Source of the DNA: a virus
Lineage: Duplodnaviria > Heunggongvirae > Uroviricota > Caudoviricetes
Virus record (IMG/VR): IMGVR_UViG_2671180755_000015
DNA: 9,584 nucleotides
Strand: one strand, 5' to 3'
Under the pieces are notes generated by a model. That model saw only the letters and a list, made by a program, of their open reading frames with translations. It was not told where the DNA came from and made no database searches. The stretch's first letter is position 1, and each line of letters opens with the position of its first letter. Shown piece by piece: positions 3,609 to 6,245 of this stretch. Both the position numbers and the translations under genes were made by a program.

Positions 3609-5426
3609 TTAATTTTTTCCATCGTCATTTGTGACCGATGCACATGATGGCATCCAGTCTTCTGAATCCTCCGTCAGGGTCACATTTGAACGCAAACCGT
3701 GCTTCGTTTTCCGTTTCATATACTCCCTGCCATATTCCGCCATTGCCCCCGGCATATCTTTACCGAAGCGCGTCAGTGTTACAGGTTTACCGAATCCGTG
3801 TGCCCTCATATATGCCAGATAGGCATGATAGAGATACCTGCGCGGGCTGAATGGCACAATTTCAGCATTACCCACTAACAGGCCATCACACATTACCGAC
3901 GCCATGAGATAGCCGCAGAAGTCCACCAGCGAATCACCTTCACGCTTTATCGCGAGTGCTTCTTCTGATTTCTGCTGCTCATATAAAAGGCGTCTGGCTT
4001 CGTCCTGGTCAGCAAACCGTGTAAGCAGATGACGAATCACTACCGCCAGCTCACCTTCTATTTTTTCCGCCAGCATTGAATCGCGTTCGTTCTCCGGTAC
4101 AACTTCCGAAAAATTGAATATCACCCGACGGCGCGAGATCCCCCCACTGCGGTCACTGAATGACATAGCGTTATTGTTAACCGCCAGCACTACTGCCGGG
4201 ATACGCGTTGAATATGGGGCTTTATGTTTTGGGTCGATTGCCACCTTGTCACCGCCTGTAATAGCCTTAATTCCCGCCCCATCACCAGCGTAGCGGGTCA
4301 TATCCGGCATGATAATCAGCGAAAAGCCAACCACTAACGCGCGTTCCCTTGCATCTTCCAGCGCCTTCATGCTCGCTGATACTGTATTAGCCTTACCCGC
4401 CAGCATGGTGCAAATCTCCGCCATCACGCTTTTACCACTTCCCCCTGGACCTGTTACCTCAATGAATAACTGCCAGTCGTACCGGTTCGCCAGCACCATG
4501 AATAATGCAGCCAGTACGCGATCCGCCTTGCGGTCATTCTCAGCCACCGAACGGCGTAACCACTTCCAGAAATTCGGCGCATGTGTTGCCAGCGTTTCCC
4601 CCTCTGCTGGTGGGCTGAAAGGTAATTCACTGGCAATTAACAACCAGTCGTTTTTGTTATGCTCCCGAAAATTACCTGTTCTGGTATCAAATACCCCGTT
4701 ACTGAATCCAATCAGGTTACGGGCTGTATTCCCCATTACAGGCAAACTTAACTTCATGGTATCGACCGCCGATTTAATGGCGTTCTGCGAATAGCTGATC
4801 TCCGCATCAATGAAAATCTGCGCCATAGCTCGCTGTAATTCTTTATCCTGTACTGGCTCCCATACAACGCCGTTGTAATGGTGAACAGTGTCAGAGTCGG
4901 CATGAATCGCCAGTTCACCGCCATAATGTGCCAGGAGAACTTCGCCGCGTTGACTTGCTCCCATCTGGTTAAGCGCCAGTGATGAAGCGTTATCGTCTTT
5001 TACCCGCTCTTTTTTCTTTACAGGCAGTTCAACTACCTTTTTCTTTTCCGTCAGCTCTCCCCGCTCACGTTCCAGATATTCGCGCCAGTTCTCCCGTTTC
5101 TGGCTGTGCATTCCTTCAGGGTAATAATCAGCATCCCTGACACCTGCCGCTGCCAGTTTCTGCCCGATGGTATTAACAAGCCCCGGACGCAATAACCCCG
5201 CCTGATAGAGACGCACGCGATAGCGTCCGTCCGGTACGATTTGCAGGTTGTCCAGTTCGGCAAGTTGTTGCTCTCCAAGCCAGACAGGAGGCACGTTATC
5301 GCCAGCCAGTCGCCCGTCCTGTTCCTGCCACTGCTTCGCATGTGCCCACGCATCACTACCCGCAAAAATGATGACTTCCGTCATTTTGTCACGTGGCTGG
5401 TGTTTTAAATTTGGCGCTTTTTTCAT
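3609..5426 (-). CDS. Replication protein with SF3 (D5/P4-type) helicase domain; primase-helicase-like
   Basis: Walker A GPGGSGKS, Walker-B-like VVGFSLIIMPD, SF3 motif-C-like VLAVNNN. The ORF track starts at GTG 5441, but the ATG at 5424-5426 has SD GGAGAGAG and overlaps the stop of the upstream 99-aa ORF (ATGA). The N-terminal ~250 aa was not recognised. Confidence 0.8.
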   Translation of the reverse strand: MKKAPNLKHQPRDKMTEVIIFAGSDAWAHAKQWQEQDGRLAGDNVPPVWLGEQQLAELDNLQIVPDGRYRVRLYQAGLLRPGLVNTIGQKLAAAGVRDADYYPEGMHSQKRENWREYLERERGELTEKKKVVELPVKKKERVKDDNASSLALNQMGASQRGEVLLAHYGGELAIHADSDTVHHYNGVVWEPVQDKELQRAMAQIFIDAEISYSQNAIKSAVDTMKLSLPVMGNTARNLIGFSNGVFDTRTGNFREHNKNDWLLIASELPFSPPAEGETLATHAPNFWKWLRRSVAENDRKADRVLAALFMVLANRYDWQLFIEVTGPGGSGKSVMAEICTMLAGKANTVSASMKALEDARERALVVGFSLIIMPDMTRYAGDGAGIKAITGGDKVAIDPKHKAPYSTRIPAVVLAVNNNAMSFSDRSGGISRRRVIFNFSEVVPENERDSMLAEKIEGELAVVIRHLLTRFADQDEARRLLYEQQKSEEALAIKREGDSLVDFCGYLMASVMCDGLLVGNAEIVPFSPRRYLYHAYLAYMRAHGFGKPVTLTRFGKDMPGAMAEYGREYMKRKTKHGLRSNVTLTEDSEDWMPSCASVTNDDGKN

Positions 5427-5722
5427 TTCTGCTCTCTCCACGCGGCAATCATGTTTTTCAGTTCCTGTAGTTTTTTATCAACATCCATACATGACACATG
5501 GTTATTTCTGGAAGGCGGGATTTCCCGCCTGAATCTGCTAATAAAGATCTCCACGTTCAGCGAACTAAGAAATGAATAGCCATCACGGATAAAATACACA
5601 CGGTCAAACATCAGTTCTTTTACCGTTACTCTGTTACCGTTCTTATCCAGATAAATAGCGCCGGGGATAATTTTGGGGTGTGCATAACCTCTGGCAGTCA
5701 AGCCAGATAAATATGTTCTCAT
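5423..5722 (-). CDS. Hypothetical protein (99 aa), coupled to the replication gene
   Basis: ATG at 5720-5722 with upstream GGGGA. Stop overlaps the rep ATG. No family recognised. Confidence 0.6.
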   Translation of the reverse strand: MRTYLSGLTARGYAHPKIIPGAIYLDKNGNRVTVKELMFDRVYFIRDGYSFLSSLNVEIFISRFRREIPPSRNNHVSCMDVDKKLQELKNMIAAWREQK

Positions 5723-5728
5723 GATTAT

Positions 5729-6049
5729 TTATCCCCGATTTGAATCAGTATTCGCTTTCTTTATGGCATTTAATGCATCTGCGGCATTTTCAATGGTGCA
5801 CCGTAACGAAATATCAAACTGCCCAAGCATTGCCAGTAACAAGCCAATATTCCCCATGTCAATGCGCATGGCCTTTTCGTCATATTCCTCATTTTCTGAC
5901 GCATACCACATCAGGTTACCAATTGAGGCAACAGCCATTGATATATTGTCAGTAGCCACATCCGCAGCGGAATAAACCTTTTTAGCAATATCATGCTCAC
6001 AGTTAAAATGCGGATTAATCAGGTACTGGTAATTTGACATATCAGGCAT
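5729..6049 (-). CDS. Hypothetical protein (106 aa)
   Basis: ATG at 6047-6049 preceded by GGGGG at ~6 nt. Starts inside the end of the upstream 67-aa ORF (8-nt overlap). Stop is 6 nt before the next start. Confidence 0.6.
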   Translation of the reverse strand: MPDMSNYQYLINPHFNCEHDIAKKVYSAADVATDNISMAVASIGNLMWYASENEEYDEKAMRIDMGNIGLLLAMLGQFDISLRCTIENAADALNAIKKANTDSNRG

Positions 6050-6245
6050 GGAACACCCCCTGACGAATACGGGCGGCGAATACCATCACGCAGCCAGCCG
6101 GGGATTGCAGGCGTGCTTCCTGTTCGCTGGTGGCCTCAATGGTAATCACGCGCGGTTGTGCCGTGCTCAGGGCGATAAAACGCCAGATGTATTTATTCAG
6201 GTTGTGTGAGTCCCGCCCTTGCGGGTGTGTGATATGATTTCTCAT
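6042..6245 (-). CDS. Hypothetical small protein (67 aa), first gene of the replication operon
   Basis: This is the C-terminal 67 codons of the 370-codon track ORF. Its ATG at 6243-6245 is preceded by GAGGT at 4-nt spacing and lies just downstream of the divergent promoter region. Possibly Icd/Kil-like by position only; not recognised by sequence. Confidence 0.5.
   Translation of the reverse strand: MRNHITHPQGRDSHNLNKYIWRFIALSTAQPRVITIEATSEQEARLQSPAGCVMVFAARIRQGVFHA

Follow-up and report, generated by a model that had tools for sequence, protein, structure and literature searches.

The virus record IMGVR_UViG_2671180755_000015 of IMG/VR, a stretch of 9,584 nucleotides from the Caudoviricetes (the window), carries three small genes, ORF-A, ORF-B and ORF-C, that encode proteins of 67, 106 and 99 amino acids (aa) and lead into a replication (primase) gene. 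These genes probably form the small-gene chain that heads the early/replication operon of a satellite of the phage-inducible chromosomal island (PICI) type, helper-embedded and inserted in terL, with the layout first worked out for the left operon of P4. Judged by profile and family searches, the first gene belongs to the Icd/Kil family and the last to the DUF4222/RgdR family, and only ORF-B, which occupies a variable slot between them, is truly uncharacterised. An earlier note on this DNA had described three unknown genes, but RefSeq already names ORF-A (WP_226280870.1) a 'host cell division inhibitor Icd-like protein' and ORF-C a 'DUF4222 domain-containing protein'. The window is 100% identical to positions 3286259-3295841 of the Escherichia coli 2013C-3342 chromosome (NZ_CP027766.1), and the flanking sequence was taken from RefSeq at that location.

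The chain lies on the minus strand, where the earlier note had placed its three ORFs (5423-6245): ORF-A runs from 6245 to 6042 (isoelectric point, pI, 10.7), ORF-B from 6049 to 5729 (pI 4.5), ORF-C from 5722 to 5423 (pI 9.9) and the 605-aa primase gene from 5426 to 3609. The stop of ORF-A and the start of ORF-B share eight nucleotides (ATGCCTGA), a 6-nt spacer (ATAATC) separates ORF-B from ORF-C, and the ORF-C stop shares four nucleotides (ATGA) with the primase ATG at 5426, junction letters that are exactly those claimed before. This ATG is also the RefSeq start; an alternative GTG at 5441 has no Shine-Dalgarno (SD) sequence. Predicted pairing energies with the anti-SD sequence are -7.2 (ORF-A, SD GAGG), -10.7, -5.7 and -6.4 kcal/mol for the four starts in order, compared with a mean of -2.1 and a 10th percentile of -5.7 kcal/mol for all 374 ATGs in the window, so that every start of the chain falls at or beyond the best tenth and the SD sequence earlier assigned to each ORF is borne out. 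The overlaps suggest that translation is coupled along the chain.

Seventy-eight IMG/VR contigs contain an ORF-B at 89-98% identity, and every one of these loci that is not cut by a contig end keeps the order Icd-like gene, ORF-B, DUF4222 gene, primase gene. All three junctions (8-nt overlap, 6-nt gap, ATGA) are the same in 69 of 76 related loci, although these loci are close relatives and their counts overstate independence. Conservation of the reading frames, whose absence had been set beforehand as grounds for abandoning the proposal, is thus what is observed. Pooled Nei-Gojobori ratios of nonsynonymous to synonymous substitution (dN/dS) are 0.56, 0.35 and 0.35 for ORF-A, ORF-B and ORF-C, and third codon positions are the most variable sites in all three. 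Because of the kept order, the identical junctions and these ratios, the three ORFs are taken to be real genes. That one or more of them is a chance open frame or a mis-annotation is hardly credible. Such an error would most easily concern ORF-A, whose ratio of 0.56 indicates weak constraint and which lies within a frame open for 370 codons whose upstream translation does not look like protein. However, ORF-A and ORF-C pass curated profile cut-offs, the ORF-B family keeps its motifs down to 25% identity, all three ratios are below one with an excess of third-position changes in intact frames, and each start has a strong SD sequence.

ORF-A scores 69.1 bits against the NCBIfam model NF033153 (phage_ICD_like; cut-off 25, E = 2.5e-19, residues 19-62) and matches phrog_6196 at 4e-44; the same NCBIfam model gives 52.6 bits for P1 Icd and 73.9 bits for P4 Kil. 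ORF-A is 35% identical to the P1 Icd core over 43 aa (pairwise E = 7e-6). P1 Icd binds FtsZ and blocks division, and a 40-residue core suffices for this (PMC11897509); residues 12-51 of P1 Icd are both the NF033153 match and the FtsZ-binding core. The three proteins share a single-domain size of about 65-75 aa (67 for ORF-A, 73 for P1 Icd, 65 for P4 Kil), and each is encoded by a first cistron whose stop lies over the next start (ATGCCTGA here, ATGA in P1, GTGCGTAA in P4). A single-sequence search found no solved-structure relative of ORF-A. On the strength of the profile, P1 and P4 comparisons, ORF-A is assigned to the Icd/Kil family, and its product would be expected to block division via FtsZ or to kill on over-expression. 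The suggestion that the chain includes a host-takeover factor fits ORF-A well, as its family contains the FtsZ-binding P1 Icd and the cell-killing P4 Kil. In five relatives (L026, L029, L064, L071 and L077), about 449 nt of extra sequence between ORF-A and ORF-B contain a second Icd-like domain match each, which indicates tandem duplication or double acquisition of Icd-like genes.

ORF-C matches the Pfam family DUF4222 (PF13973) over residues 16-67 with 60.7 bits (cut-off 27, E = 1e-16). The only characterised DUF4222 protein is RgdR (ECs1581), encoded by the Sakai prophage Sp7 (= CP-933C = O-island 51), a protein of 99 aa with a pI of 10.09; it is an activator of LEE1 and type III secretion and a repressor of motility, and its DNA binding is non-specific (PMC3378721, PMC10877973). 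ORF-C aligns with RgdR without gaps over 99 of 99 residues (29% identity, E = 2e-11), and from this alignment it is a full-length relative of RgdR. Both proteins are basic, 99 aa long and colinear from end to end, although ORF-C falls in a subgroup separate from RgdR. The genomic setting is also alike: the rgdR gene of Sp7 lies directly 5' of the primase gene ECs1582 with a 4-nt overlap, in a chain headed by the Icd-like ECs1577. The Sp7 chain differs in that not one but three small genes separate its Icd-like gene from rgdR, none of them related to ORF-B. A DUF4222 gene directly 5' of the replication gene, with the ATGA overlap, is found in the window, in Sp7 and in four further E. coli elements (L082-L085), where it precedes a gene of the primase type or of the RepA-helicase type. 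RgdR, known solely as a virulence regulator of enterohaemorrhagic E. coli, can thereby be put in its native place, where it is the final small gene ahead of the replication gene of a satellite, and this context suggests that its effects on the enterocyte effacement locus (LEE) and on motility are side effects of a satellite function.

ORF-B has no match in Pfam, NCBIfam or PADLOC and aligns from end to end with phrog_15327, a family of unknown function (2e-69). A full HMMER scan of 1.84 billion representative proteins returned 16 ORF-B matches at E <= 1e-3. One of the proteins matched, 1222 aa long and similar to ORF-B in 14 stretches, was rejected as a relative: it shows a weak likeness to eukaryotic tetratricopeptide repeats (TPR), a compositional or helix-hairpin resemblance and not homology. 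After removal of this false lead and of fragments, the family consists of six proteins of 100-106 residues and 25-64% identity that share the motif IGxLMxxA(x5)Y...DMxxIG. Word-seeded protein searches recovered close relatives only, and a scan of one genome per species gave 174 pattern matches, none of which was confirmed. An AlphaFold2 (AF2) model built from a 10-sequence alignment, with a mean predicted local distance difference test (pLDDT) score of 80.5, confidently predicts a plain two-helix hairpin (helices 19-51 and 58-105); the single-sequence model (pLDDT 50.5) was unusable. Foldseek searches of the hairpin model against PDB and BFVD gave nothing better than E = 0.2. For ORF-B and ORF-C, single-sequence searches against solved structures found no relative, and profile searches found none below E = 0.02. 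The earlier remark that no gene of the chain was recognisable therefore holds for ORF-B, for which profile searches and Foldseek gave no informative neighbour.

Two remote relatives of ORF-B (26-27% identity) are encoded in other int-alpA-Bro/AntA-DUF927 elements, again in an overlapping chain before the primase gene. One of these chains follows a gene with an Icd-like C-terminus, and in locus L086 an extra gene separates the Icd-like gene from the ORF-B relative. As far as the recovered relatives tell, the ORF-B family is small and confined to this chain of PICI-type satellites. ORF-B is unrelated to ECs1579 and ECs1580, the genes in the corresponding slot of Sp7.

The chain varies between elements. 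Across elements it begins with an Icd-like gene, continues with one to four unrelated small genes and often a DUF4222 gene, and ends in the replication gene, each gene overlapping or almost touching the next; in L002 and L082-L085, the small ORFs that separate the Icd-like gene from the DUF4222 gene number one to four and are unrelated. Part of the region is matched in 1402 of 5426 complete E. coli genomes, but only 376 match at least 80% of it, equivalent to the three genes. ORF-B at 89-98% identity is paired with Icd-like genes at 43-99% identity to ORF-A, and in two loci its companions are a DUF4222 gene of 35% and a primase of 48% identity. The modules thus recombine freely, which argues against a toxin-antitoxin relationship between ORF-A and ORF-B or between ORF-B and ORF-C, and for an exchangeable accessory slot. 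A toxin/antitoxin-like pair, proposed earlier for this DNA, would have the acidic ORF-B (pI 4.5) neutralise the basic ORF-A (pI 10.7); the two genes overlap and proteins of the Icd family are toxic (P1 Icd, PMC11897509; P4 Kil, as summarised in PMC10111431). The pairing is nonetheless very unlikely, because ORF-B has no constant Icd-like partner, other elements place unrelated genes after the Icd-like gene (ant1 in P1, epsilon in P4), and L086 has another gene in between. In addition, the chain matches no toxin-antitoxin family of Pfam or NCBIfam, the eight element proteins scanned with PADLOC gave no defence match, and it is an antisense RNA, not an antitoxin, that controls the toxic gene of P1 and of P4.

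The left operon of P4 consists of an isrK-like and C4 (CI) RNA region followed by Kil (Icd-like, 65 aa), epsilon, which overlaps Kil by eight nucleotides (GTGCGTAA), orf151, cnr and alpha. The old P4 'cI gene product' ORF is made up of Phage_ASH and an Icd-like domain (7.8e-21), and directly before the Icd-like gene come the C4-family CI RNA and the isrK-like element. The last 65 codons of the cI ORF, starting MATTLTPSHPEF, match P4 Kil in size. The chain studied here resembles this operon in its first cistron of 65-67 aa matching NF033153, the 8-nt overlap, the small genes that follow, with another small gene before a D5/P4-type primase, and the long open frame in phase with and upstream of the short first gene (eta in P4). 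The differences are also clear: the window has neither a C4/CI nor an isrK RNA, both of which are present in P4 and in the related loci L003, L068 and L089; ORF-B is not epsilon and ORF-C (DUF4222) is not Cnr (DUF5375); the N-terminal domain of the primase is unlike alpha; a capsid-protease fusion is found rather than sid, delta and psu; and control apparently lies with a YlcI/YnfO-family protein and operators. ORF-C and Cnr are unrelated in an hhalign comparison (probability about 0.1%).

In P4, a helper-derepression protein, epsilon, is indeed encoded in the slot that follows the Icd-like gene, in agreement with what the earlier note said of small helper-manipulation genes at this position. 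ORF-B could accordingly be a functional analogue of epsilon that inactivates a repressor or regulator of the helper: it sits in the exact epsilon slot, immediately behind the Icd-like gene and overlapping it by 8 nt, it is small, acidic and helical, and its slot varies between elements as expected for helper-specific factors. This identification is nevertheless unlikely. ORF-B does not match the epsilon family PF25738 and is not aligned to epsilon by hhalign (probability about 0.1%), the elements that carry it occupy many integration sites and combine it with different partners, and a helper-embedded satellite would gain little from derepressing a helper whose induction it already shares. The ORF-B family, exchangeable cargo in the slot of the P4 helper derepressor, is a reasonable target of screens for helper or host interaction.

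A similar unit occurs in the immI region of P1 and P7. Here, the icd stop and the ant1 start overlap (ATGA), and icd is annotated as required for ant expression. The window and immI share the Icd core, the first position of the Icd gene and the overlap of its stop with the next start, but ORF-B, DUF4222 and primase genes lie downstream in the window in place of the antirepressor genes ant1 and ant2, no c4 RNA is found in the window, and the P1 icd frame is open for only 11 codons upstream. From these comparisons, enterobacterial PICI-type satellites have in their pre-primase chain the counterpart of both the P4 left operon and the icd unit of P1 immI. The ends of this chain are conserved (Icd/Kil-like first, often DUF4222/RgdR-like last) and its middle is exchangeable. 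None of these findings overturn current views of satellites.

The element that carries the chain is about 10.3 kb long, and the window covers nearly all of it. [quoted passage not shown] The two halves of a lambdoid prophage terL (gene A) flank the element on the same strand and are co-oriented with it. A 12-bp direct repeat, CCCTCCATCCAA, is present at both ends (locus L001, 11205-11216 and 21552-21563; the right copy is at 9552-9563 of the window). In silico excision yields a junction with 100% identity to intact terL in one genome; in most of about 490 further E. coli genomes, the identity is 99.8%. Helper-embedded PICIs have four main targets, of which gene A is one (Mageeney et al. 2023, PMC10111431), and the gene order of that type, int, alpA, Bro zone, primase, SSB and captured late gene, is found here. 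A co-oriented island of about 10.3 kb in gene A, with a 12-bp identity block and a known empty site, likewise corresponds to the published elements.

By these features, the element is a helper-embedded PICI of the published type and not a P4-type satellite. The likening of the chain to P4 in the earlier note therefore stands for its position, since the left operon has the same order and 8-nt overlap, and falls for the type of element, which is a PICI without P4 late genes. No sid, delta or psu gene is annotated in the element; it has instead the capsid-protease fusion (129-2018, minus strand, 629 aa), which shares 52% identity, from end to end, with the corresponding fusion protein in the host prophage (L001, 6411-8390), a kinship that fits late-gene capture by PICIs. 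The Icd-like/ORF-B/DUF4222 chain is not singled out in PMC10111431, where the region falls within the 'Bro zone' and 'Replication' zones.

Two further observations concern insertion sites. The terL halves are out of frame by 1 nt after excision: among the genomes listed, the 412-nt junction is matched only by FRIK944, most others having 413 nt. The resident terL may thus carry a 1-nt deletion near the att core and be defective even after excision. In E. coli GPEC79-13-647 (L085, 1-8157), an Icd-like gene, one small gene, a DUF4222 gene and a primase gene adjoin a truncated major capsid gene and genes for a head decoration protein and an S49 peptidase, and this satellite appears to be embedded in its helper's capsid gene.

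If the chain is the head of a satellite replication operon, it may work as follows. Transcription would start at a promoter-like site lying over three operator-like repeats, opposite the YlcI/YnfO gene. ORF-A would be a basic, FtsZ-directed inhibitor of growth and division, and would also serve as the ribosome entry point from which re-initiation proceeds down the chain, as with icd for ant in P1. On derepression, or on late read-through from the helper, ORF-B, ORF-C and primase would be delivered in fixed proportion. ORF-B would act as an exchangeable accessory protein binding a helper or host protein. ORF-C would be a small, basic, weakly specific DNA-binding cofactor produced along with the replication initiator; most likely it would work jointly with the initiator, or on promoters of the satellite or of the host in the manner of RgdR. 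The C4/CI antisense-RNA immunity kept by P4 and by relatives would have been lost in this element, which would rely on protein repression.

An Icd-like gene combined with a primase gene also invites a defensive reading, in which chain and primase form an abortive-infection or superinfection-exclusion module and the Icd-like protein arrests growth on a phage trigger. Six linked prophage genes of ECOR61, including an Icd-like gene and a DNA primase gene, cause programmed cell death on expression of the phage gene orf24, with the Icd-like protein as the likely effector (Silas et al., bioRxiv 10.1101/2023.04.06.535777). The composition is of the same kind as in the chain here, the two being compared by composition; the ECOR61 locus differs in that its defence phenotype is set off by a specific phage gene. 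The probability of a dedicated defence module is low, as no PADLOC model is matched, reconstitution of the ECOR61 system in a laboratory strain was reported to be weak (bioRxiv 10.1101/2023.04.06.535777), and the chain is part of a core replication operon, so that defence would be a side effect of induction. Defence of this kind is compatible with a satellite replication operon and does not exclude it.

Several observations weigh against the interpretation of the three genes as the head of a satellite replication operon, or against parts of it. The identity of ORF-A is just 35% to P1 Icd and 28% to P4 Kil (E = 0.022), and its dN/dS of 0.56 reflects weak constraint. At residues 20-22, ORF-C has PGA where RgdR-type sequences have RGD, the tripeptide that gave RgdR its name, or CGD. 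In elements with ORF-B relatives and DUF927 primases, other small genes replace DUF4222; since some elements with this N-terminal primase domain and with relatives of ORF-B lack it, DUF4222 is, by this distribution, not obligatory for replication. Nothing positive points to a partner or an activity of ORF-B, and RNA folding at the three junctions is no better than in shuffled controls (z = 0.28, -1.21 and -0.35). Finally, ORF-A is a recombinant when aligned with L003. The two share a block of about 93 nt that contains the SD sequence, the ATG and the first 18 codons of ORF-A; beyond this block, L003 has about 340 nt of extra sequence with isrK, C4 and an Icd start of its own; ahead of that start stands GTCAAAGGAGG, a sequence that is both complementary to the C4 loop and the ribosome-binding site of the Icd-like gene. 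The first 18 codons of ORF-A thus correspond to a leader block that lies upstream of the RNA genes in L003, and from this alignment ORF-A is a recombinant without the RNA immunity module.

An Rfam scan of the window (E <= 1) detected no C4/CI or isrK RNA, its only matches being spurious ones of miRNA or snoRNA type on the inverted repeat of the origin region and elsewhere. In L003, L068 and L089, isrK and C4 directly precede the Icd-like gene, which is followed by ORF-B, DUF4222 and primase genes. The isrK-like and C4/CI RNA genes are at 2692-2880 in L003, 5577-5765 in L068, 4359-4586 in L089 and 8420-8692 in P4 (L090). Translations named 'Phage_ASH' in Pfam or 'ash family protein' in RefSeq overlie these RNA genes. 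Among sister elements, a module for RNA-based immunity has thus been exchanged for a putative protein-repressor arrangement, while the coding chain behind it is the same.

The putative protein-based control region lies in the 196-nt interval between ORF-A and a YlcI/YnfO-family gene (6442-6621, plus strand, 59 aa; NF041551, 72.3 bits). Three copies of the palindrome TGGATTCCA/TGGAATCCA (6343-6351, 6366-6374 and 6411-6419, together spanning a divergent control region at 6343-6419) overlap promoter-like sites that face each other, one for the operon (6380-6351, minus strand) and one for the YlcI/YnfO gene (6331-6358, plus strand), both assigned by their match to the consensus. These palindromes are likely operators. 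The YlcI/YnfO protein has a weak match to an Rv0623-like transcription factor (E = 0.024), its divergent arrangement recurs in L082-L085, and it may act as the repressor of the operon. A 5' leader predicted for the operon (6215-6345, minus strand) folds at -40.5 kcal/mol (z = -3.4; one of 200 shuffles as good). It contains a strong hairpin at about 6315-6281 (GAGGCUG...CAGCCUC) that is not conserved in L003, and the SD sequence of ORF-A is partly paired.

The frame of ORF-A continues without a stop upstream of its ATG for 303 codons (7154-6246, minus strand). Positions 6246-7154 have no stop in this frame compared with 18 in each of the other two minus-strand frames, and dinucleotide shuffles of the same stretch have a mean of 12.4 stops, none of 5000 being stop-free. 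The open frame is antisense to the YlcI/YnfO gene and to a 75-aa plus-strand gene and crosses the control region. In relatives, frames of 200-765 codons recur although the upstream sequences are mostly non-homologous; in about a quarter of the close relatives, the frame is open for only about 100 codons. Translations of the long upstream frames do not look like protein. RefSeq sometimes annotates such frames as long 'Icd-like' proteins or as pseudogenes. A long Eta-like protein with a defined start was considered here and rejected, as no in-frame upstream start has an SD sequence as good as that of the ATG at 6245.

The summary of P4 in PMC10111431 describes eta as a long ORF in frame with kil that is read from an upstream late promoter, Eta translation preventing Rho-dependent termination; Kil is described there, after Forti et al. 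1999, as a truncated Eta that kills cells. By analogy, ORF-A might form only the Kil-like end of a nested, eta-like frame, about 370 codons long and kept open for the passage of ribosomes and not for a protein. Late read-through from the helper (through terL', int, alpA and Bro) would be shielded from Rho, and the ribosomes would be fed into ORF-A, ORF-B, ORF-C and primase. The chain would then have two modes of expression, from its own repressed promoter and from helper late transcription, with ORF-B as the new effector in both. This extension is tentative and has perhaps one chance in a few of being right. If it is true, the eta-like frame offers a natural way to carry helper late transcription into the chain, given that the satellite is co-oriented with the late genes of its helper.

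The replication protein passes the Pfam primase-helicase models D5_N, DUF5906 and Pox_D5, whose domains follow its N-terminal part, and matches phrog_864 at 2e-192, while its score against TIGR01613 (95 bits) is under the cut-off of 108.7. Its N-terminal domain, about 125 aa long, is missing from P4 alpha; it shares 76% identity with the corresponding domain of a RepA-helicase-type protein and 48% with that of a DUF927-type protein, both of other elements (L082, 1612-3012; L086, 5982-8063). Several IMG/VR loci match only residues 1-146 of the primase (4989-5426 in the window), suggesting a constant N-terminal domain with a swapped catalytic part. On these matches, the N-terminal 125 aa or so are a separate, PICI-specific module.

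Directly downstream of the primase gene, an AT-rich region at 3330-3608 (no strand assigned) contains at least ten iterons (GGTGAACAGT/ACTGTTCACC) in both orientations, along with a 53-nt imperfect inverted repeat. It is probably the origin of replication of the satellite; origins of PICIs from Gram-negative hosts are located downstream of pri (PMC10111431). The inverted repeat accounts for the spurious Rfam matches to miRNA families.

A core of about 95 nt at 6591-6684 is the sole upstream part of the window that is common to most of the mosaic relatives. It comprises the end of the YlcI/YnfO gene and a hairpin, GCGCCGTGGT...ACTACGGCGC (6631-6657), and may be a conserved terminator or a recombination anchor.

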